Below, piece after piece: positions 34,583-63,200 of a DNA stretch of 64,000 bases. The stretch's first letter is position 1; the number at the start of each line of letters is the position of its first letter. Location of the stretch: IMG/VR virus record IMGVR_UViG_2974779332_000001, positions 32,001-96,000 of that record; one strand, 5' to 3'. A program made the position numbers and the translations under genes. Source of the DNA: a virus. Lineage: Duplodnaviria; Caudoviricetes. The notes beneath the pieces are model-generated. The model ran no database searches, had not been told where the DNA came from, and saw only the letters and a program-made list of their open reading frames with translations.

Positions 34583-35074
34583 ATGATTGTTGCGGGAACA
34601 GGTCATAGAGAATTGAGGGACCGCGACTGGATTGCTGCCGAAACTGAGCAGGCCCTCATGACAATGGGGGCCTCTTTGGTTTATACAGGCATGGCATCTG
34701 GTTTCGACCTGCTATTGGCTAAAACAGCCTGGGGTCTGGGGATTCCCTTCATTGCTGTAAAGCCGTGGAGGGGTCACAAGCCTAGGAAGGCAGATGAATA
34801 CGACTACTACAGGGCTTTGGAGTTGGCAGAGGATGTGGTGAACGTTTTTCCAAATGATAACTATCCTGGTGCTTGGGCATATCAGAAGCGAAACGAATAC
34901 ATGGTTGACCATGCAGAAGCTGTCCTTGGCATGCTTGAGGCTGGCAAGACTGGGGGAACCTATAATTGCCTAAAGTACGCTTCTGGCAAGATGCCCATCA
35001 GAATCATTGACCCTCTAATGAGGGAGGTGTGGCACGTTGGCATTGACTCTGTACCGAAGCGAAAACTGGCTTAG
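34583..35074 (+). CDS. SLOG-superfamily protein (YspA/DprA-like)
   Basis: TGHR, TGMASGFD, KRNEYMVD, GGT.N. Confidence 0.8.
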   Translation: MIVAGTGHRELRDRDWIAAETEQALMTMGASLVYTGMASGFDLLLAKTAWGLGIPFIAVKPWRGHKPRKADEYDYYRALELAEDVVNVFPNDNYPGAWAYQKRNEYMVDHAEAVLGMLEAGKTGGTYNCLKYASGKMPIRIIDPLMREVWHVGIDSVPKRKLA

Positions 35075-39130: not shown

Positions 39131-39733
39131 ATGACTGACGTAGATATTGTTTTGATTGTTGACCGCTCTGGTAGTATGGCTACTATCCAGATGGAGGCGG
39201 AGACAGCAATCAATCAGTTCCTCAAAGACCAGAAGGCCGTTGAGGGCGACGTGTTCGTTACTTTCGTGCAATTCGACAACAAGTATGACCTGGTATTCGA
39301 GAAGGTAAACCTTCCGAACATCCCTAGAGTTCAGATTGAGCCTCGTGGTATGACAGCTCTGCTTGACGCAATCGGTCGAACCGTAGTAAACTATGTACCA
39401 CGAACTGAGAAGACTATCTTCGTCATCATGACTGATGGCCTTGAGAATGCTTCTCAGGAATGGACTAACACTGCGGTGAAGAACCTGATTGACGAGGAGA
39501 AGCAGCACGGAAGTGAGTTTGTCTATCTTGGTGCAAACCAAGATGCGGTGGCAGTAGGTGCTAAGATGGGGATTCCTGTCGCGAGCAGCCTCACCTTCGC
39601 AGCGGACAAGGCAGGACTTGACGCAGTGTCTCGCAGCATGACAAGCTATGTAACAGCGACTCGCTCTGGACTCGCATACGAGTTCACTGATGAGGACCGC
39701 AAGAACGCCACAGGCTTGACAGACAGCGAGTGA
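39131..39733 (+). CDS. von Willebrand factor A domain protein
   Basis: MIDAS DRSGS, TALLDA, MTDG.EN.S. Confidence 0.9.
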   Translation: MTDVDIVLIVDRSGSMATIQMEAETAINQFLKDQKAVEGDVFVTFVQFDNKYDLVFEKVNLPNIPRVQIEPRGMTALLDAIGRTVVNYVPRTEKTIFVIMTDGLENASQEWTNTAVKNLIDEEKQHGSEFVYLGANQDAVAVGAKMGIPVASSLTFAADKAGLDAVSRSMTSYVTATRSGLAYEFTDEDRKNATGLTDSE

Positions 39734-39744
39734 GCTGCTAAAGT
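39716..39744 (+). promoter_or_regulatory. sigma70-type promoter driving Y RNA-like 1 and tRNAs
   Basis: TTGACA-17 bp-TAAAGT; predicted +1 at about 39751 coincides with the ncRNA 5' end. Confidence 0.7.
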
Positions 39745-39750
39745 AGTAAA

Positions 39751-39834
39751 TGTGGGTCGAACGAAGGTTGGTTATCTTTCAAATGGTGAATACGCTCCGA
39801 TAGGGGCTCTCCGACTTTCAAACACTTATCCACA
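39751..39834 (+). ncRNA. Y RNA-like 1 (minimal Ro60-binding stem, no T arm)
   Basis: TGTGGGT/ATCCACA terminal helix, CGAAC internal loop, GAAGGTTGG/CCGACTTTC helix, GGTTATCT motif shared with two other copies. Confidence 0.75.
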
Positions 39835-39838
39835 AAAT

Positions 39839-39909
39839 GCATCGGTAGTTTAATGGTAGAACGAGAGACTTCCAATCTTTCGGCGCGGGTTCGATTCCCG
39901 CTCGGTGCT
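39839..39909 (+). tRNA. tRNA-Gly(UCC)
   Basis: Cloverleaf, anticodon loop CTTCCAA, GGTTCGATTCC. Confidence 0.92.
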
Positions 39910-39914
39910 CTCTA

Positions 39915-39985
39915 TCCCGTATTGTGTAATGGTAGCACAAAGGTCTCTGAAGCCTTTAGTCTTAGTTCGAATCTAGGTGCGGGAG
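39915..39985 (+). tRNA. tRNA-Gln(CUG)
   Basis: TCCCGTA/TGCGGGA acceptor, loop CTCTGAA. Confidence 0.92.
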
Positions 39986-39987
39986 CT

Positions 39988-40152
39988 GGTCCGACTTTAC
40001 GATATCGGCGGAAATAACTGAATCGGAACTCACATAATAACCATGGTAAAAGTGAGGAATGAGGAAGGGAAATATGCGGGAAGCGATGGGTAAAACCTCC
40101 TCGGACCGACAACGGGGTTTCTGGATGCTCTTTCCCAAGAATAAGATGCACC
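39988..40152 (+). ncRNA. putative structured ncRNA (unknown family)
   Basis: Spacer with no credible ORF; GGTCCGA/TCGGACC closing stem, CTCAC/GTGAG, GAGG/CCTC, GGGAAA/TTTCCC. Confidence 0.4.
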
Positions 40153-40154
40153 AT

Positions 40155-40225
40155 ATGTCCTTCGTATAATGGTAGTACAAGAGATTCCAAACCTCTTAGC
40201 GTGGGTTCGATTCCTACAGGACATG
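40155..40225 (+). tRNA. tRNA-Trp(CCA)
   Basis: ATGTCCT/AGGACAT acceptor, loop TTCCAAA. Confidence 0.9.
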
Positions 40226-40232
40226 CTTTGAT

Positions 40233-40410
40233 GAGTCTCGCCTTAGCAGGCATGAACGATAGTGTTCAGCATAAACTATCAAGTAAGCCCAAGAGACAAA
40301 CTGAAAGGGGTAACCCATGCTGAGGGTTCCTGATTAAGGAGTAGGGGATAAGGTCCCAAACAGTGTCAAAACCATTTAAAAAACGCCCGGTATCGAAAAG
40401 GTACCGGGCA
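40233..40410 (+). ncRNA. putative double-pseudoknot ncRNA (unknown family)
   Basis: GTCTC/GAGAC crossed by CCTTAGCA/TGCTGAGG; nested TGAAC/GTTCA + GATAGT/ACTATC pseudoknot; 3' GCCCGGTATC/GGTACCGGGC hairpin. Confidence 0.55.
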
Positions 40411-40430
40411 CAATAATATCCGGAGGAAAT

Positions 40431-40874
40431 ATGGGATACTACACAGACTTCACTCTAAGAGCGGAAGGCCGTGGAGCTGTCTATGACAAGATGATGAGAG
40501 ACAGGTCCAAGATTACATTCTCCTATAGCAACTACGACTTTACCCTCGGAGACTGGCTTGACAGAGACTACTCTGAGAACCTAAAGTGGTATGAATGGGA
40601 GAAGGACATGAAGCAGCTCTCAAAGGAGTGGCCAAACGTCCTATTTATTCTTGATGGAGATGGCGAAGAGACTGGTGACCTCTGGAGAGCATGGTTTCGA
40701 AATGGTGCCATGTACAAGCTTGAGGCAAAGATTGTTTTCGAGACAATCAAGCCAGATTTGGACAAGCATCTTCCATATGACCATGACCTTGACAAGCGTC
40801 TCGGTGAGCAGTACAAGGAAGAACTCAAAGACGAGATTGCCAGATTGCAGAAGCAGCTTGACTCACTAGACTGA
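40431..40874 (+). CDS. hypothetical phage protein
   Basis: 147 aa, GGAGG RBS; MGYYTDF...KWY.W..DM...S..WP...F.L.G.GEE motif seen in phage proteins. Confidence 0.75.
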   Translation: MGYYTDFTLRAEGRGAVYDKMMRDRSKITFSYSNYDFTLGDWLDRDYSENLKWYEWEKDMKQLSKEWPNVLFILDGDGEETGDLWRAWFRNGAMYKLEAKIVFETIKPDLDKHLPYDHDLDKRLGEQYKEELKDEIARLQKQLDSLD

Positions 40875-40885
40875 GAGGTGTAGGG

Positions 40886-41037
40886 TGGCTCTTACAGGCA
40901 CAAACGGACAGTGTTGGTTCCAAAGATGTTCTCGCAAGGCGACAACGACAATTCGGTATTACAACAAGTCAGTTGTCGTCTGTAATGGACACAAGAACCT
41001 TGATGGTGTAGGCTGTCCTTCAAGTAGGCGGAGACCA
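40886..41037 (+). ncRNA. putative long-hairpin/pseudoknot ncRNA (unknown family)
   Basis: Nested GGACAG/CTGTCC, GGTTC/GAACC, TGTTC/GGACA, GACAAC/GTTGTC; crossing TTACAGGC/GTCTGTAA. Confidence 0.55.
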
Positions 41038-41042
41038 AAGAG

Positions 41043-41071
41043 TTGACACTACTCAGAGGGTCTGCTAAGAT
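41043..41071 (+). promoter_or_regulatory. sigma70-type promoter
   Basis: TTGACA-17 bp-TAAGAT upstream of tRNA-Pro. Confidence 0.7.
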
Positions 41072-41099
41072 TAAGTACAACGGCAGGGAAACCTGCTAT

Positions 41100-41171
41100 C
41101 AGGCTCGGGGAAGATGGTAATCCGTTGGCTTTGGAAGCCTAAGACACTCGGTTCGATTCCGAGGGGCCTGA
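41100..41171 (+). tRNA. tRNA-Pro(UGG)
   Basis: CAGGCTC/GGGCCTG acceptor, loop TTTGGAA. Confidence 0.85.
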
Positions 41172-41202
41172 CCGAACATAGGAGGCATCCTATGCGTCTT
41201 GC

Positions 41203-41270
41203 GGCGGTGAATGTAGGAACCACAGGTTATGCAGCCAAGGTGGTCAAGGTTCGACTCCTTGCATCGAGCG
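41203..41270 (+). ncRNA. degenerate tRNA-like element (T arm present, no canonical anticodon arm)
   Basis: CAAGG-TTCGACT-CCTTG T arm; CGGTG/CATCG partial acceptor; ACCAC/GTGGT helix. Confidence 0.45.
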
Positions 41271-41302
41271 TACTGGGGCTGATACGATAACTCAGCATTT
41301 AA

Positions 41303-41377
41303 CGGGATATAGCTCAGCTTGGTCAGAGCGCGCGGTTTGGGACCGTGAAGTCGTCAGTTCGAATCTGACTATCCCGA
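41303..41377 (+). tRNA. tRNA-Pro(UGG)
   Basis: Canonical CGGGATA/TATCCCG, loop TTTGGGA. Confidence 0.95.
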
Positions 41378-41380
41378 CAA

Positions 41381-41529
41381 TTTGGGTCGAAAGAGATACG
41401 GTTATCTAACAATGGATAATAGGTTCGATTCCTATCGGTGGGTATAGCCCGCTGTGTAAGGCCATCCGAGATGCGTGTGGTAGGATGGCATTGGAACTAC
41501 ACGCTCTCCGTTCTCATCACTTATCCAAA
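41381..41529 (+). ncRNA. Y RNA-like 2 (YrlA-type: Ro stem, T arm, closed acceptor-like hairpin, pseudoknot)
   Basis: TTTGGGT/ATCCAAA, CGAAA, GAGA(T)ACGG/CCGTTCTC; ATAGG-TTCGATT-CCTAT; CGGTGGG/CCCGCTG hairpin; GCCATCC/GGATGGC with loop GCGTGTGGT pairing ACTACACGC. Confidence 0.8.
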
Positions 41530-41539
41530 GGATTTAATC

Positions 41540-42061
41540 ATGACGGTACTTCTAAGAACCATTCATGGTTCACACCTTTACGGTCTCGCTCATGCAGGGT
41601 CTGATAAAGACATCTACGAAGTCATTGCGACTAAGCGTACGAAGCGTAAGCGAAACATCAAGCAGACCATTGCAAATGGTGTTGACAAGACTACAGTTGA
41701 CCTGTCAACATTCATGCATATGGTTGACGAATGCGTACCTCAAGCACTTGAAGCGCTATGGACGCCGGTTGCAGAAATTGATGAAATCAATTCCTTCCGG
41801 ACACAATATCGAGTGAATCGCGCCAAGATGAAGGAAGTATACATTCGAACCGCTCTAAACTTCGCCAAGCATGATGATGTAAAGCGTAAGCGTCACGCTA
41901 TCCGTTTGCTTCTCAATCTTGGAGCAGCTTTGGAATACGGTAAGTTCAATCCCAGACTATCCAATATGGACAAGTTCATTCTCCGCTCATCACTCGGAGA
42001 AACGGGAGCTTATGAGGATGTCTTTCTAGGCGTTCTCGATGAAGTGCAAAAGTGGGTCTGA
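41540..42061 (+). CDS. Pol-beta superfamily nucleotidyltransferase (RlaP/YcgL-like)
   Basis: GSHLYGL...SDKD (GS + DxD) N-terminal motif; K...H..RL helix. Confidence 0.8.
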   Translation: MTVLLRTIHGSHLYGLAHAGSDKDIYEVIATKRTKRKRNIKQTIANGVDKTTVDLSTFMHMVDECVPQALEALWTPVAEIDEINSFRTQYRVNRAKMKEVYIRTALNFAKHDDVKRKRHAIRLLLNLGAALEYGKFNPRLSNMDKFILRSSLGETGAYEDVFLGVLDEVQKWV

Positions 42062-42074
42062 CGGCTCACGCCAA

Positions 42075-42151
42075 TGGGGCGTATACCCTCACTCTGATAA
42101 AGTGTAGAAAGGTTAATCGGTTACATGTGGGTTCAATTCCCACCGTCCCAA
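42075..42151 (+). tRNA. atypical D-armless tRNA-Ile(GAU)
   Basis: TGGGGCG/CGTCCCA acceptor, CACT-CTGATAA-AGTG, T arm GTGGG-TTCAATT-CCCAC; no D stem; D-loop-like TAATCGG lies 3' of the anticodon arm. Confidence 0.65.
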
Positions 42152-42191
42152 CTGGCTCTCTGTGGAGAGCATTCCTAGAAACAACAATAAT

Positions 42192-44009
42192 ATGGTAGAT
42201 TTCGACAAGAGACATTCCAAAGAGATTGTGAAACGCCCTGACTCAGACCTGGAACCCTCCAGGTCTTTTCGGTCTTCCGAGCAGGGTGTATTTTTGCATG
42301 TCAAAAAGGGAATGAAGATAACCACTAAGGCCATTCTGGATTGGGTCTACCTGAATGACTATAAAGAGGAGATTGCTAAGGCTAGAACAGAAGGCAATCT
42401 CGAAAAGGCCCGGAAGTTGAAGATAGAGCAAGAGAAGCGTAGTGAACCAAGACGTAAGAGGTTCTACTCTACCCTTGCTGTACTAATTGCACTTATTGGT
42501 TGGGCCTATGTTACATGGGCCATTGTTCCAATTGTTGTGGTGTTGGTTGTGAGCCTCCTTGCCATGTGGTTTGTAGGTAGCGGCGTCAAGCCTCAGCAGC
42601 TCGTATCAGCAATTACCGGAAAGGAGGAAGAGGAGCTAGACCCAATGGAGCCTTTTCCAATTTCCGATGCACGCAACAGAGACGAGGCTCAGGAATGCTT
42701 GAGGAGAGCCCTTCTTGCTGAGGGAATCACTCCCAGGGTTATCTTGGAACCAACTCGTTACAATTGGGGTTGGGAAATCCCGGTAGTTCTGAGAAAGGGA
42801 ACTCCTGATGATGTAATGTCTAAGGCTAAGAAGATGGAGACACTACTAAGACTTCCTACTGATGGAATGCTAGTAGCTGCTACTCGATTCCGGGCCGAAG
42901 TAATTATTCGTCTCATGCAGACCGACCCATTTGCCGACATGAGAAACGAACCAAGGGCTGAACCACTCTCACGTTCAATCAAGAAGAAGTACAAGATTGC
43001 ACAGAGAATGGATGGTCAGTCCCTTGAAATCAGCTTGCTGAGAAATCACGCAGTTGTTATTGCAGCGCCTGGTGGTGGAAAGTCTATGTTCATGCGTAAG
43101 CTAGCAGACATCACCACTAGCTGTAGAGATTGTGTAACCTGGGACATTGACCCTGGTGGCAATGGACTCGAAGTCTTCGGAAGTGCTATCGCAAGGCGTG
43201 GTAGGACAGAAGAGGAAATTGAAGAAATGCTAACCGAGGCTCTAGAGTACACCAAGATTCGTGCAAAGAAGCTGACGAAGCTTCGCATGGGTGACAACTG
43301 GCAGCCAAGCAAGGAACATCCTGCTCTTATCATCTTCATTGATGAGTTTATTCAGCTAAACAAGAAGTGCAAGGAACTGGCCATTGACATTATCCGCAAT
43401 GGACGTAAGTCTGCTATTACTGTTGTGCTAGCTGCGCAGCAGGCTACAAAGGACCAACTTGGTGCCGCCATTGCAGATGCAGTGTCTATCAAGGTTATGT
43501 TTGCTTCTCGTCACGCTGACGTACCTCTAGTATTCGGAGAGGGTATGTTGTCCCAGGGCTGGAGACCTGATAAGCTACATCCAGCATCAGGTGAGGACGT
43601 GGAAGACGCTGGTAAGTGTTACATTTTGGGCGGTGGCTCAAGGGAACCTTATCTATACAAGGTAACTCCAATAGAACCTGATGAGGCTATCGAGATGGGT
43701 GATGAGCGTGAAGCAGAGGGCATGCCCGAACTTGACAGTGATACCTACCTAGATGTTACAGTTACAGACACAACAGACAAGCGCCTCTTGGAGGACGTGC
43801 TTGACATCTTTGAGAACTTTGACGAGAATGACTGGCTTCCTGCCAGCATCTTGGTCAAGGAACTTAAGGGCTACGGTCACACCTTGACAGCTCGTCAGTT
43901 GCATGAGACTCTAGGAGATACCGGTCGAGAGAGCCGTATTTGGGAAGGGTCCAAGTACAAGGTGGCTGGTTACTTCCGAAAGAACATCGAAAAGCAATTG
44001 GAGAAGTAA
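42192..44009 (+). CDS. FtsK/TraB-like DNA translocase
   Basis: N-terminal TM pair, Walker A APGGGKS, Walker B IFIDE, GRK...AAQ, probable C-terminal wHTH. Confidence 0.85.
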   Translation: MVDFDKRHSKEIVKRPDSDLEPSRSFRSSEQGVFLHVKKGMKITTKAILDWVYLNDYKEEIAKARTEGNLEKARKLKIEQEKRSEPRRKRFYSTLAVLIALIGWAYVTWAIVPIVVVLVVSLLAMWFVGSGVKPQQLVSAITGKEEEELDPMEPFPISDARNRDEAQECLRRALLAEGITPRVILEPTRYNWGWEIPVVLRKGTPDDVMSKAKKMETLLRLPTDGMLVAATRFRAEVIIRLMQTDPFADMRNEPRAEPLSRSIKKKYKIAQRMDGQSLEISLLRNHAVVIAAPGGGKSMFMRKLADITTSCRDCVTWDIDPGGNGLEVFGSAIARRGRTEEEIEEMLTEALEYTKIRAKKLTKLRMGDNWQPSKEHPALIIFIDEFIQLNKKCKELAIDIIRNGRKSAITVVLAAQQATKDQLGAAIADAVSIKVMFASRHADVPLVFGEGMLSQGWRPDKLHPASGEDVEDAGKCYILGGGSREPYLYKVTPIEPDEAIEMGDEREAEGMPELDSDTYLDVTVTDTTDKRLLEDVLDIFENFDENDWLPASILVKELKGYGHTLTARQLHETLGDTGRESRIWEGSKYKVAGYFRKNIEKQLEK

Positions 44010-44359: not shown

Positions 44360-44390
44360 CGCTATATCACTACAATTAGATGGAGCTAAA

Positions 44391-44555
44391 GTGGCTCTTT
44401 CCCATCCTGACGGTACTAAAATCGTCATTACCAGGGGCCAGTACAGGAACAAGCAAGGCACAGTTACCGTCGTCGGTAAGATTAAGCTGGTTGTTCTTGA
44501 CGATGGCACTGAGCTTATGGCTGTTTCTGACGAAATGGCTCGGAAAGTACAGTGA
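44391..44555 (+). CDS. small KOW/SH3-like protein (not in ORF track)
   Basis: GTG after GGAG; GTKIVITRGQYRNKQGTV KOW-like motif. Confidence 0.6.
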   Translation: MALSHPDGTKIVITRGQYRNKQGTVTVVGKIKLVVLDDGTELMAVSDEMARKVQ

Positions 44556-44556
44556 C

Positions 44557-44730
44557 ATGGAAAGCAAGAAGTATCTCTCAGTAGGAGACATTGTATTTGT
44601 TCTCCAGACTCGTGCGGAGGTTTACGACCTCGTAGATACAAATACTTCACTTCTAAAGGTACGTTTCCTTGAGGGACCGGCCCAAGGTGAAGTAAGTCTA
44701 GTAGTTCTTAAGCAGGTTGAGCGCGACTGA
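44557..44730 (+). CDS. small SH3-like protein
   Basis: LSVGDIV...AEV...KVRF pattern. Confidence 0.55.
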   Translation: MESKKYLSVGDIVFVLQTRAEVYDLVDTNTSLLKVRFLEGPAQGEVSLVVLKQVERD

Positions 44731-44739
44731 GCGCTCTTT

Positions 44740-49923: not shown

Positions 49924-51570
49924 ATGTCAAACGCACTTAACAACGCTGCCAAGAGTCTGAACAAGACTCCTCAGTCTCAGAAGGCTAAGGCAAGTCAGGT
50001 CAAGAACAACGCTGGTGGATTCGTCTTCCAGGTTTCTGACCAGGCTCGTCTAGAGCGATTCTTGATTCTGGGTGTCGATGGCGGTACGTATTACGTCAGT
50101 GAGGTCAATCATGCTATGAGCAATGTTGGCTTCCTCAACGAGATGATTGAGCGAGACGAAGCCTCTGTTCTGCGCACCATTGTAGACGTGTCTACAAGTG
50201 GTCGTGCGTACAAGCAGTCTCCTGCCCTGTATGCTCTAGCCTCTGTTATTGCCAACGGCAAGGACAAGCAGGCAGTTAAGGCAGTATTCAATCGTGTCGT
50301 TCGTACAGGTACCCACTTGTACGAGGTCATGAACTACCTCACCTCTCTCAAGATTGGTTGGGGTCGTTCAAAGCGAGAGATTGTTGCTTCTTGGTTCGAC
50401 AAGGATGCTGACAAGCTGGCTTACCAGGCGGTCAAGTACCGTTCTCGTAAGTTTGGAGAGCAGACCTGGACGCTCCGAGACGTAATGCGTCTTTCACACC
50501 CACGAGATGTGAACACATCTGTTGTGGACTTTGTTCTTGGCAAGTCTCATGATTCTATCGATGACCTTCGGGTTATCGAGGGATTCAAGAAGATGCAGAG
50601 GGCTCAGTCTGTTGACGATGTTCACGCTGTTCTTCGTGAGTACGAGATGCTTTCATGGGAGACAATCCCAACTCAGTTCCTCAAGGATGTGAGTGTATGG
50701 AAGCGAATCTTTGCTAACGGACAACTTCGTGGCCAGGCTCTGGTTCGAAACATCACTCGCCTAGCGCGAATTGGTGCTTTCCAGGACATGCGCTTTGCTG
50801 CTGCTTATGCAGGACAGCTAACGAATCAGGAAATGATTGTACAGACTCGTCTGCACCCAATTAACTTCCTGAACGCTACTGTCGTGTATAACGAAGGCCA
50901 GATGAAGACCGTAAAGGACCGATATGGCTGGGACCGCGAGCAGCGAGTAAAGGACTGGACAACTGAGAGTGTTATCGTGGATGCCCTCAACGAGGGATTC
51001 CACAAGGCATTCAAGGCTGTTGAGCCTGCTGGAAAGCGAACGATGCTAGCCATCGACGTTTCAGGTTCTATGAGTGCAAAGGCTAACGGTCTCGACCTTA
51101 GCTGTGCTCAGGTTTCTGGCGCAATGGCAATGACCATCGCTCGTACCGAGCCTGCTCACATCATCCGTGGATTCACGTGTGATGGTTACAGCTACAGGAA
51201 CAGTGGTCTTACCAACCTAGGCATTTCTGCAAACACCGACCTTGCTACGGTAATGCGTAAGGTGCAGCGAAGTAACTTTGGTGGCACAGACTGTGCGCTT
51301 CCTATGGTTTGGGCCAAGGACAACAAGGTTGAGGTTGACACCTTTGTGGTTATCACTGATAACGAGACATGGGCTGGCAACATTCATCCTTTCCAGGCCC
51401 TCAAGGACTACAGGAAGGCTACGGGCATTGACGCTCGTTTGGCTGTTCTTGGTGTTGCGGCAACGCCGTTTACCATTGCAGACCCAAGCGACTCAGGCAT
51501 GATGGATTTCGTTGGCTTTGATAGCAACGCACCTCGTGCGCTCGCAGATTTCTCTGCTGGTCGTATCTGA
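49924..51570 (+). CDS. rsr: Ro60 / TROVE-vWA RNA-binding protein
   Basis: NNAGGF.F, RLERFLILG..GGTYY, YQAVKYR.R, D.MRLSHP, RLHP, DVSGSM, GGTDCALP, ITDNETWAG, GFD. Confidence 0.95.
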   Translation: MSNALNNAAKSLNKTPQSQKAKASQVKNNAGGFVFQVSDQARLERFLILGVDGGTYYVSEVNHAMSNVGFLNEMIERDEASVLRTIVDVSTSGRAYKQSPALYALASVIANGKDKQAVKAVFNRVVRTGTHLYEVMNYLTSLKIGWGRSKREIVASWFDKDADKLAYQAVKYRSRKFGEQTWTLRDVMRLSHPRDVNTSVVDFVLGKSHDSIDDLRVIEGFKKMQRAQSVDDVHAVLREYEMLSWETIPTQFLKDVSVWKRIFANGQLRGQALVRNITRLARIGAFQDMRFAAAYAGQLTNQEMIVQTRLHPINFLNATVVYNEGQMKTVKDRYGWDREQRVKDWTTESVIVDALNEGFHKAFKAVEPAGKRTMLAIDVSGSMSAKANGLDLSCAQVSGAMAMTIARTEPAHIIRGFTCDGYSYRNSGLTNLGISANTDLATVMRKVQRSNFGGTDCALPMVWAKDNKVEVDTFVVITDNETWAGNIHPFQALKDYRKATGIDARLAVLGVAATPFTIADPSDSGMMDFVGFDSNAPRALADFSAGRI

Positions 51571-55160: not shown

Positions 55161-55235
55161 GCCCTAGTATTGGCCCGGCCTTCTAAGCCAGAGGCGCATA
55201 ACGGAAAGATGCAGGTTCGAATCCTGTCTAGGGTA
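55161..55235 (+). tRNA. atypical D-armless tRNA-Arg(UCU)
   Basis: GCCCTAG/CTAGGGT, GGC-CTTCTAA-GCC, TAACGG after the anticodon arm, GCAGG-TTCGAAT-CCTGT. Confidence 0.65.
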
Positions 55236-56998: not shown

Positions 56999-57176
56999 GG
57001 CTGACAAGCCCAAGGACCAGTTCGACAAGAATCCAGCCTTGTGCAGAACATGCGTAGGTGGTACAGTAGTACCAAGAAGCACAAAGCGAGGACGCTCAAG
57101 AGGAAGCGGTGGCGGATTCGCTGATGCAGTTGGTGATTTTGTAGAAGGAATCATCGACGCAATCACAGGCAATTAG
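56978..57176 (+). CDS. small Zn-finger protein
   Basis: KCWGCK..KP...F.....CRTC. Confidence 0.55.
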
Positions 57177-57197
57177 TAAGACGCCCGTAAGGGCTAT

Positions 57198-57273
57198 TCC
57201 GGTGGGGCTACTATTGGCAGTAGCGACGAGCTGTTAACTCGTTTCCCTGTAGGTTCGATTCCTGCCTCCGGAG
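57198..57273 (+). tRNA. tRNA-Asn(GUU)
   Basis: TCCGGTG/CTCCGGA, loop CTGTTAA. Confidence 0.88.
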
Positions 57274-57274
57274 C

Positions 57275-57670
57275 TGGCCGCCAAAGCTTAGGGAAATAGC
57301 TACCCTAGGCACGGATAAACCGGATGGTAGGTCATAGTTTTCTAGATAAGCTATGACTGAGGACAAGGTGGAAACCCGGAGACAAACTGGGGCACGGCCA
57401 ACCATTTATAGATTTGCTAAGGTGCGTAGATTCACAGGCTAGAATGGGTTTTACTGATTTTCAAATCCAGGAGGCGGTGATGAAGAAGGGTTTAGCGGCT
57501 CTACTTACCCAAGAGGAATCAGTTGAGGGTAATCGCGCTAAGTAAAAGAGCGGCTGTTGGGACCGCTTCGAGCATGAGACCCGGCTCAAACGGGGAGTGC
57601 TGCATCCCTTCCAAAGGGTAAGATGGATATCCTATTGATAATAGTGGGTTGGAAATGCCCTCTCCATCAC
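57275..57670 (+). ncRNA. putative ~400-nt large structured RNA between two tRNA-Asn genes
   Basis: No + strand ORF in the ORF track; more than 10 helices including long-range GCCGCC/GGCGGT, ACTGATT/AATCAGT, TTCCAA/TTGGAA. Confidence 0.65.
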
Positions 57671-57672
57671 AT

Positions 57673-57745
57673 TGGCCTATAGTTCAATTGGTAGAGCAGA
57701 TGGTTGTTACCCATCAAGTTGCTGGTTCGAATCCAGCTAGGTCAG
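57673..57745 (+). tRNA. tRNA-Asn(GUU)
   Basis: TGGCCTA/TAGGTCA, loop TTGTTAC. Confidence 0.92.
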
Positions 57746-57776
57746 CGCAAAGCGATTACATCAATCTGCTTACGTC

Positions 57777-57801
57777 AAGTCACCCTTAATGGGTGACTTT
57801 T
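57777..57801 (+). terminator. intrinsic terminator
   Basis: AAGTCACCC-TTAAT-GGGTGACTT-TT. Confidence 0.75.
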
Positions 57802-57825
57802 GGCGTTTTATGGTACCATCGTTTT

Positions 57826-61298: not shown

Positions 61299-62108
61299 AT
61301 GGGTTTCTTCGGCAACAAGTCCAAGCCTGCTTTCGTTCGGTCTCGGACTCTTACGCCTAAGAAGACTGTTCGACTGACGTACTTCTCCAACAGTGGTCCG
61401 GCTGTCAGTCTCCAGAAGATTTCCAATGTGAGTCTTCGCAAGGAGGTTGAGGACACTGCTAAGGTCATCAAGAAGGGTGGAGCCCTCGGTGTCAAGTGGG
61501 CCGTTCTCGGTGCCGTTGACACTTCTGGTTCAATGGGTGGCCTTTACCAGAGTGGTGCTGTTCAGACGGTAACTGACCGTGCGCTAGCTTTCACGCTTTC
61601 AATCGATGAGGATGGGTTCATTCCCTTTGCCACATTCGGTGAGCGCTTCAAGTGGCGCAAGGAAGTTGGTCAGGCTGACTACCAGAACCTCGTTCGTACT
61701 GAGGGCTGGGACCGAGGTCTTGAGTATGGCACTGTCCTTGCCAAGACTGTTCGAGAGATTACCGCTCTAGCCAAGGGTGCCGACACTCCTGTCTATGCGT
61801 TTATCATCACTGATGGTGAGCCTACGGACGGTAAGGAGAATGTCTTCAAGGCCATCCAGGAGGCTTCTCAGTACCCCATCTTCTTCAAGTTCCTTGCGGT
61901 TGGTGGAAACCGAGGTGCCATTGCATTCCTCAACGAGCTTGACGACATGGAGCGCACTCGTCCTGGTTCACGTCTGTTTGACAACGTGGACACGGCTGAG
62001 ATTCCTGACCCCAAGCGCGTGTCAACTGAGCAGTTCGCTGCTATGATGACTGAGGAGATGGCGAACACCATCCAGGGCATGAAGGATGCTGGTCTAGTCA
62101 CTGGTTGA
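61299..62108 (+). CDS. vWA domain protein (TerF-associated vWA-like)
   Basis: DTSGSM..LY..G.VQ, D.DG, ITDG.P, YPIFF.F..VG, L.ELDD, R.FDN. Confidence 0.85.
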   Translation: MGFFGNKSKPAFVRSRTLTPKKTVRLTYFSNSGPAVSLQKISNVSLRKEVEDTAKVIKKGGALGVKWAVLGAVDTSGSMGGLYQSGAVQTVTDRALAFTLSIDEDGFIPFATFGERFKWRKEVGQADYQNLVRTEGWDRGLEYGTVLAKTVREITALAKGADTPVYAFIITDGEPTDGKENVFKAIQEASQYPIFFKFLAVGGNRGAIAFLNELDDMERTRPGSRLFDNVDTAEIPDPKRVSTEQFAAMMTEEMANTIQGMKDAGLVTG

Positions 62109-63125: not shown

Positions 63126-63200
63126 GGTGGCTGTATCATAAAAGTAATGTACTAGGCTGTGAACCTAGGTAAGAGGGGGCGGTACCCTCCAGTCACCCCA
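63126..63200 (+). tRNA. tRNA-His(GUG), G-1:C73, non-canonical T loop
   Basis: G-GTGGCTG/CAGTCAC-C-CCA, loop CTGTGAA, T loop GGCGGTA. Confidence 0.8.

Follow-up and report, generated by a model that had tools for sequence, protein, structure and literature searches.

The window analysed here is a stretch of 64,000 nucleotides (nt) of phage DNA, comprising bases 32001-96000 of the 133,090-base pair (bp) virus record IMGVR_UViG_2974779332_000001, which has direct terminal repeats; the relatives of this phage are Streptomyces phages of the Stanwilliamsviridae, cluster BE type. We found that the 398-nt spacer between two tRNA-Asn genes of the window (57275-57672) is a real structured non-coding RNA, and that it is a composite of three modules rather than one ornate RNA. 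Two of these, Modules A and B, are uncatalogued RNA folds that are backed by covariation and match no Rfam family, and the third is a cut-down version of a unit, Module C, that several relatives carry at full length. We consider it about an even chance that the three modules are tRNA-shaped accessory RNAs, derived from tRNA precursors, that bind a tRNA-handling protein. The initial annotation of this DNA, made from its letters without database searches, had described a single ~400-nt RNA placed exactly between the two tRNA-Asn genes. ARAGORN and Rfam bore out the placement (genes at 57198-57274 and 57673-57746), and the single RNA gave way to a chain of units that relatives carry separately.

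The spacer is built from modules that occur independently in related phages

Blastn found the spacer in 89 phage records, all Streptomyces, with coverage of at least 80% in only 2. We aligned the spacer of the window with 28 others from its relatives; 23 of these came from deposited phages and 5 from IMG/VR loci, of which three belong to named phages. The aligned sequences broke into independently occurring blocks, Modules A, B and C. A first scan of the collection with a 14-base pattern had returned mostly chance matches, which were sorted by blastn.

Module A is present in most Boydwoodruffvirinae and missing from Paradiddles, NootNoot and LilMartin; in Faust, Sham and TunaTartare its place is taken by a different closed unit. 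Module B is present in nearly all relatives and missing from Tomas, Naboo and Coruscant. Module C, about 105-110 nt long, is the sole occupant of the slot in Coruscant, substitutes for A in LilMartin, sits after A in Yaboi, and substitutes for B in Tomas and Naboo. The combinations seen include B only (Paradiddles), A and C without B (Tomas), C only (Coruscant), and C and B (LilMartin). When whole records were searched with covariance models, that for Module B (Model R1) found one copy in the genome of the window and none in Coruscant, Tomas or ET08, and that for Module A (Model R2) found none in Coruscant, Belfort, ET08, Faust or Paradiddles. Of the two domains of Module B, B1 occurs by itself in Belfort as a diverged copy (24 bits) located elsewhere in the genome, behind the tmRNA (transfer-messenger RNA) of that phage, and B2 is kept in the metagenome locus L070, in which B1 is reduced.

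Many relatives carry one or two small open reading frames (ORFs) between A and B, behind a TTGACA-17-TAGGAT promoter of their own; the window, Bmoc, LilMartin and Faust have no such inserts. A group I intron with ORFs inserted in a loop was considered for this arrangement and rejected, since the inserts bring a promoter of their own, are placed between modules that are each closed, and leave the two tRNAs whole. Other closed structured units stand ahead of Module B in Loccivirinae, at Belfort L205:17625-17760, where the closing stem is 11 bp (AAGAGGUCAGG/CCUGACCUCUU), and at Faust L139:1050-1190, where the unit type has covarying hairpins; Model R2 detected neither.

Beyond these phages, the B1 pattern (14 specified bases) was sought in bacterial genome and metagenome contigs, and among the 240 loci listed an nhmmer profile of Module B matched only the pattern itself. 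The Module B model, with the top candidates of each genome scored, gave 0 of 2 and 0 of 151 in sampled Actinomycetes genomes. Among the genomes searched, the module family is so far confined to Stanwilliamsviridae.

Module B contains a covarying loop-loop helix

The elements of Module B are as follows.

57421-57612, + strand: Module B, whole, made up of domain B1 and a 3' two-hairpin domain, B2 (covariation)
57421-57539, + strand: domain B1, with four arms
57421-26/57534-39, + strand: S7, closing helix of B1
57445-50/57464-69, + strand: S0, hairpin of B1
57453-59/57517-23, + strand: S1, loop-loop (kissing) helix of 7 bp between the S0 and S2 loops
57487-92/57497-502, + strand: S3, hairpin of B1 with the invariant loop sequence UUAGCGG
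57505-10/57527-32, + strand: S2, hairpin of B1
57540-57612, + strand: domain B2
57548-53/57563-68, + strand: S4, hairpin of B2
57571-74/57598-601, + strand: S6, invariant, enclosing S5
57580-83/57591-94, + strand: S5, loop GCUCAAA, with 3 of 4 pairs changed on both sides
57602-12, + strand: invariant single-stranded tail GCAUCC(CUUCC) of B2

RNAalifold, applied to 28 distinct Module B sequences, returned 40 pairs with compensatory change in 18. A 2-pair helix that it had placed inside the S2 loop was swapped for S1, a crossing pairing (ACTGATT/AATCAGT) that had been picked out in the initial annotation, and this gave a structure of 45 pairs in 8 helices. In that structure 98.7% of 1258 cells are paired, and two-sided change occurs at 21 of the 45 pairs (4 of 6 in helix 1 and 6 of 6 in helix 5). 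The covariation score is 0.388, compared with 0.166 in shuffled alignments (0 of 500 reach the observed value) and at most 0.066 with slid partners. S1 is fully paired in 28/28 sequences, and three of its seven pairs covary, with the versions UGA/UCA, GUC/GAC and GGC/GCC. S2, proposed earlier as TTACCC/GGGTAA, is 100% paired and changes on both sides at all six pairs, in at least five versions, and AGCGG/CCGCT, which is S4, likewise holds against the relatives. Because G-U pairs are frequent in Module B, we take the + strand to be the folded strand. A small hairpin between S7 and S0 (about 57431-57444) is inconsistent across lineages and was omitted from the model.

The linkers that join S3, S2 and S7 are just 2 nt and 1 nt long. 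As modelled, B1 would have the order and spacing of a cloverleaf, with an elbow made by Watson-Crick pairs. Many unpaired bases of Module B are invariant (GUAGA, UUUUAC, AUGAAGAA, UUAGCGG, AGAGGAA and GUUGA).

Two likenesses to known motifs were tried and rejected. The S4 loop CUGUU was considered as a copy of the Asn anticodon loop; as read from the alignment, UGUUGGGA is present in 16 of the 28 sequences and ACGGA stands instead in the other 12. A hammerhead-like GAUGA core was rejected by eye, the junction after S3 having UAC and not GAAA.

Module A folds into a closed unit with three arms

The elements of Module A are listed next.

57276-57404, + strand: Module A, a four-way junction (covariation; minimum free energy fold; Model R2, 145 bits)
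57276-80/57395-99, + strand: P1, closing helix, covarying
57281-82/57313-14, + strand: P1b
57286-93/57303-10, + strand: P2, GCTTAGGG/CCCTAGGC
57330-40/57348-58, + strand: P4, GTCATAGTT/AGCTATGAC, with the conserved loop UUCUAGA
57375-79/57387-91, + strand: P5, 5 bp with a 7-nt loop, adjoining the closing stem
57400-04, + strand: 3' tail AACCA (ACCA-like)

In 21 sequences realigned to Model R2, two-sided change was found at 17 of 26 pairs, and the covariation score was 0.363, versus 0.141 after shuffling. The closing helix P1 occurs as GGCCG/CGGCC, GUGACG/CGUCAC and GGAACG/CGUUCC. Both P2 and P4 had been proposed from the window sequence; P2 holds against the relatives, and P4 forms in 21/21 sequences, in which UUCUAGA is flanked by five or more distinct stem sequences. 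As P4 was misaligned in 12 rows, it was folded separately. Module A of the window folded alone gave the same helices as its minimum free energy structure (z-score -3.54, with 0 of 200 shuffles as good). The modelled plan is cloverleaf-like: P1 closes a set of three arms, of which the last is a 5-bp stem with a loop of 7 nt, and AACCA forms the tail.

The tail of the spacer resembles a cut-down Module C

The remainder of the spacer can be described as a small tRNA-like unit with the following parts.

57622-57672, + strand: tail, a cut-down Module C, mini tRNA-like unit (fold; likeness to Module C of Tomas and Naboo)
57622-27/57663-68, + strand: acceptor-like closing stem, 6 bp
57632-36/57640-44, + strand: small hairpin
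57646-49/57657-60, + strand: T-arm-like hairpin, 4 bp, with the 7-nt loop UGGAAAU
57669-72, + strand: 3' end ACAT

The 3' half of the tail (UAGUG, the T-arm-like hairpin, the closing strand and ACAU) matches that of Module C in Tomas and Naboo. Blastn gave no match to the tail in deposited phages, and one metagenome contig carries it with 3 differences. GATGGA/TCCATC, a helix of the initial annotation, closes the tail in the fold and has no relatives for comparison; a crossing pairing proposed nearby, TTCCAA/TTGGAA, is specific to the window. In the three phages where it was folded, full Module C has an acceptor, a D arm, a short hairpin standing where the anticodon arm would be, a long variable arm, and a T arm of 5 bp and 7 nt that abuts the acceptor; in LilMartin the T loop is UACGAAU. 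Module C, as predicted by these folds, is an overt look-alike of a class-II tRNA in shape.

The spacer matches no catalogued RNA family

We scanned the 4227 families of Rfam 15. At the gathering score, only tRNAs were found in the whole window, and at E-values up to 10 the region 57150-57800 gave the 2 tRNAs, 2 chance matches and nothing else. By model, then, the region is none of GOLLD, ROOL, OLE, tmRNA, RNase P RNA, group I intron and YrlA. The loci of five relatives, scanned at E up to 5, gave no match on any module. Consistent with the initial annotation, no signature of RNase P, tmRNA or group I introns was found among these families. The flanking tRNAs are both complete, leaving no split exons, which further sets the spacer apart from a group I intron. 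The spacer shares with tmRNA its place in the same phage array, a tRNA-related and pseudoknot-bearing character and a short reading frame, but it has no ARAGORN or Rfam tmRNA match, lacks an acceptor/T-arm end that could be aminoacylated, and conserves no tag frame. Passages of the full-text literature, two genome announcements among them, describe tRNAs, one tmRNA and a Ro-like protein in these phages and contain no spacer RNA.

The whole spacer folds barely better than its shuffles on the + strand (z-score -1.76, with 6 of 100 shuffles as good; -0.20 on the - strand). As this energy is unimpressive, the case for structure rests on the comparison with relatives.

GOLLD and ROOL are single RNAs of more than 500 nt. 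The initial annotation had proposed a compact RNA of this kind or a new class, and the spacer is indeed phage-borne, structured, placed beside tRNA genes within an array of 29, and equipped with a pseudoknot-type interaction. However, it has no Rfam match at E up to 10 and divides into three units, with lengths from about 50 to about 190 nt, which are found separately in relatives. Moreover, the sole proposed link between A and B, GCCGCC/GGCGGT, is complete in only 2 of the 20 spacers that have both sides and fails in 18; its GCCGCC strand pairs within Module A instead, with covariation. One large ornate RNA similar to GOLLD or ROOL is therefore scarcely credible to us, whereas the suggestion of a new class stands for Modules A and B, as does that of a structured non-coding RNA with real crossing (loop-loop) pairing beside phage tRNA genes.

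Reading frames within Module B are poorly conserved

The spacer holds no substantial ORF, as had been claimed; the longest has 43 amino acids on the + strand and 64 on the - strand. One short frame lies inside B1.

57480-57545, + strand: 21-codon ORF, MKKGLAALLTQEESVEGNRAK, behind AGGAGG (ORF scan)

In the window, the AGGAGG box is 8 nt upstream of the ATG (57480). The frame is not intact in 11 of 28 sequences, the window included: Bordeaux has ATC for ATG, codon 11 is TAA in Warpy and in two metagenome copies, and the window, TunaTartare, Sham, Elmer, Faust, Navo and Braelyn have an early stop or a frame shift. The first 10 codons are open in 28/28 (with ATC as the start in Bordeaux). Variable columns number 7, 9 and 12 at codon positions 1, 2 and 3 (21 columns each). 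The ORF is probably incidental; even so, B1 may include a short translated leader, given that a long frame is open in 17 of 28 sequences and one pair of indels nets 3 nt. A tmRNA-type role for its MKKGLAA frame was rejected, as the tmRNA is elsewhere in the genome and no tag frame is conserved.

It has to be asked whether the stretch encodes a small protein, the hypothetical protein of 35-67 amino acids of several relatives, with the RNA pairings incidental. In 17 of the 28 sequences the frame remains open across Module B, a net 3-nt indel stays in frame, and a coding sequence is annotated in StarPlatinum, Enygma, Elmer, Birchlyn, Karimac and Evy. However, in the other 11 sequences the ATG is missing, the frame ends early or it shifts, compensatory stem changes produce radical residue changes (T/V/N/I and G/Y/I/D), third-position bias is little, and the annotated coding sequences extend into the tRNA gene. 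We consider this explanation extremely improbable. The deposited hypothetical-protein genes that span Module B (L002:2007-2147, L005:2219-2422 and similar ones), several of which extend into the tRNA-Asn gene, are probably mis-called; in Evy, the tRNA is unannotated.

A second possibility is that B1 is a conformational switch or leader, in which the short ORF, or pairing of UUAGCG with the 3' strand of S7, controls downstream output. Such a pairing had been listed as TTAGCG/CGCTAA; in the form UUAGCG/CG(U/C)GCUA-A it is compatible with 24 of 28 sequences and mutually exclusive with the covarying S7, and it could be an alternative fold. The spacing of AGGAGG and the open first 10 codons also fit a leader. 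Nevertheless, the alternative pairing never changes on both sides, the structure runs 130 nt past the ATG, no terminator or sequestered start is under its control, and StarPlatinum-type sequences have no Shine-Dalgarno box, leaving a switch very unlikely in our judgment. Another crossing pairing from the initial annotation, TTTTACT/AGTAAAA, is complete in 4 of 28 sequences and overlaps S0 and S1, and was dropped. In total, five nested helices and one crossing helix of the initial annotation proved right.

The modules may be released from a tRNA precursor

The spacer lies inside an array of tRNA genes, 29 of which were called in the window by ARAGORN, every one on the + strand. Its immediate neighbours are as follows.

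57198-57274, + strand: upstream tRNA-Asn(gtt), or tRNA-Asn-1, atypical, with no CCA encoded (ARAGORN; Rfam tRNA, 36.2 bits)
57673-57746, + strand: downstream tRNA-Asn(gtt), or tRNA-Asn-2 (ARAGORN; Rfam, 65 bits)

The long D arm of the upstream tRNA is due to a 10-nt insertion in the D loop. In Bmoc, the same slot is filled by a quite different tRNA-Asn sequence, yet the RNA behind it is conserved. A consensus scan found no promoter or terminator on the + strand inside the spacer, and a hairpin followed by a short T-run was seen by eye 3' of the downstream tRNA (about 57781-57805). From the missing spacer signals and the hairpin and T-run behind tRNA-Asn-2, we infer that the modules are made within the tRNA precursor and freed by tRNA processing. 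Modules A and B and the truncated C would be transcribed with the flanking tRNAs as one precursor, from which the tRNA-maturing enzymes probably free them: RNase P would make the 5' cut of tRNA-Asn-2, and the RNA behind tRNA-Asn-1 would undergo 3' trimming.

The modules might instead be cis-acting elements for the processing or stability of a tRNA/mRNA precursor, which guide RNase P or RNase E cuts or, after the tRNA has been cut away, cap the 3' ends of upstream messages, these messages being the ORF cassettes in relatives. In keeping with this, B always either immediately precedes a tRNA or lies where an ORF cassette ends, and in most relatives its invariant GCAUCC tail stops 2-3 nt short of the tRNA. 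However, in TunaTartare B is followed by an HNH gene and not a tRNA, and in Belfort B1 is away from tRNAs. A simple hairpin would also be enough for such a task, and the 190-nt four-arm domain, the covarying kissing helix and the invariant unpaired bases are left unexplained. Thus, we regard a cis-acting role as quite unlikely.

We favor accessory RNAs of tRNA shape, intended for a protein that normally handles tRNA. Each module would present its own terminal helix and cloverleaf-like arms, with the last arm abutting the closing stem, and in B1 the 7-bp loop-loop helix would form the elbow. The modules could then act as mimics, decoys or adaptors in a phage programme of tRNA supply and RNA repair. 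Several observations weigh against this proposal. The likeness of A and B to tRNA is one of topology only, as modelled, and canonical D-loop and T-loop sequences are absent; neither ARAGORN nor the Rfam tRNA model (RF00005) calls A, B or the tail, or Module C of the relatives. B2 and its invariant single-stranded GCAUCC tail are without explanation under tRNA mimicry, and B1 of the window, like that of some relatives, contains an ATG along with a good Shine-Dalgarno box. The modules are dispensable within the family, which implies no essential role, and all sequences come from one phage family, in which independent compensatory events are far fewer than the cells counted.

A possible relationship to Ro60 and Y RNAs

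A candidate partner is encoded 5.7 kb upstream of the spacer.

49924-51570, + strand: Ro60 (TROVE) gene (Pfam TROVE, 1.8e-32; vWA_Ro60, 1.6e-59)

The gene is annotated 'Ro-like RNA binding protein' in relatives, and Ro60 was found in 113 records of Streptomyces phages as well as in mycobacteriophages, ET08 among them. According to passages of Chen et al. 2014 (PMC4201824), the Y RNAs called YrlA are known from Ro60-bearing mycobacteriophages, with 22 YrlA-carrying phages in the supplements; they have the motif GNCGAAN0-1G in the 5' strand of the terminal stem, and their genes share the strand of Ro60 and lie no more than about 4 kb from it. The same passages (Chen et al. 2014, PMC4201824) describe more than one Y RNA in known bacteria and a Y-RNA architecture of a closing stem plus a tRNA-like domain.

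The spacer resembles YrlA (RF02553; PMC4201824) in that both are small structured RNAs, combine a closing stem with a tRNA-like body, and are encoded on the strand of a phage Ro60 gene. Some relatives also have a YrlA-like RNA within this array of tRNA genes. The YrlA model matched ET08 beside its Ro60 (37.4 bits) and, within the array, Jay2Jay (39.8 bits), Paradiddles (34.8), Faust (36.5) and Belfort (29.5); in Jay2Jay, Faust and Belfort, the phages in which positions were checked, the match lies just behind tRNA-Ile and overlaps no tRNA. Within Jay2Jay L214:1487-1995, a full-length YrlA-like RNA with GUCGAAG, a T arm and a D arm follows tRNA-Ile(tat). The corresponding Ile-Ser spacer of the window (44361-44739) is without the ~145-nt YrlA stretch of Jay2Jay, and Ro60 is kept. 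Matches to the YrlA model in the genome of the window are tRNA artefacts only, the best of which (23.1 bits) spans two adjacent tRNAs. Bmoc and StarPlatinum, which also keep Ro60, have no YrlA match at E up to 0.001.

As the phage of the window thus has Ro60 without a recognisable Y RNA, there is room for a Y-RNA role of A, B or C. One or more modules would be Y RNAs of a new type that bind the phage Ro60, adapt or gate it as YrlA does in bacteria and mycobacteriophages, and replace the lost YrlA. The presence of multiple Y RNAs with a closing stem and tRNA-like domain in bacteria (in the passages of Chen et al. 2014, PMC4201824) fits this proposal, as do the position of the Ro60 gene on the same strand and the sequence CG-CC-AAAG after the Module A closing stem, which resembles GNCGAAN0-1G with two extra bases. 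However, the YrlA model gave no match on the spacer, and the motif as defined is absent: Module A reads GCCG-CC-AAAG (GACG-CC-AAAG in the Jay2Jay type), with a 2-nt insertion, and B reads GCACG-UAGAU. The permuted arm order of YrlA (T arm, closed acceptor-like stem, D arm) is absent from A, B and C, and the distance to Ro60 exceeds the 4 kb seen for YrlA; in Jay2Jay, though, the YrlA-like RNA itself is placed in the tRNA array and not right next to Ro60. Furthermore, the modules do not track the absence of YrlA, since Jay2Jay has YrlA together with A and B; Coruscant and Tomas have Ro60 without B, and ET08 has Ro60 without A or B. We regard a Y-RNA role as possible, if rather unlikely. Unlikely, too, is its extension to all three units, by which A, B and C would be interchangeable Y-RNA cartridges; each would serve Ro60 as a distinct adaptor of tRNA shape, related phages would exchange them, and in this phage they would replace a lost YrlA.

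Other features of the tRNA neighbourhood

RNA-surveillance or repair-type genes occur around the tRNAs of the window (49924-51570, 41438-42061, 61299-62108 and 34583-35074); they encode Ro60 (TROVE plus vWA), an RlaP-like nucleotidyltransferase, a vWA-TerF-like protein and a weak SLOG/YspA-like protein. The slot after the second tRNA-Asn is occupied by a gene for a band-7-like membrane protein in most relatives and by a 445-amino acid ORF without a Pfam match in the window; in Coruscant (L204:15819-16472), an annotated RNA ligase gene comes right after this tRNA. The canonical tmRNA of the phage is outside the window (G000:97446-97728, 90.4 bits). Three weak Rfam tRNA-like matches without an ARAGORN call, at 42075-42151, 55161-55235 and 63127-63197 (30.8, 30.7 and 40 bits), could be odd tRNAs or further tRNA look-alikes. 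In Faust, a near-threshold Rfam manA match (L216:913-1068; 46.3 bits with a cut-off of 55.2, E 1.9e-9) lies behind tRNA-Gln in the array; no counterpart was found in the window at 39700-42200 with E up to 0.1.

Implications for phage RNA biology

To our knowledge, the biggest tRNA arrays are those of large actinophages, where they occur along with Ro60, tmRNA and RNA-repair enzymes. The spacer adds to this setting at least two uncatalogued, covariation-backed RNA folds, one of them with a loop-loop helix, which are gained, lost and swapped among close relatives. Public annotation is corrected as well, in that several deposited 'hypothetical protein' genes across Module B are probably not genes. 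If the modules were exchangeable Y-RNA cartridges, the Asn-tRNA slot would be a hot spot where phages diversify the RNAs that partner an RNA-surveillance protein. If, as we favor, the modules mimic tRNA, they would offer a handle on the function of Ro60 in phages or on the phage response to host enzymes that attack tRNA.

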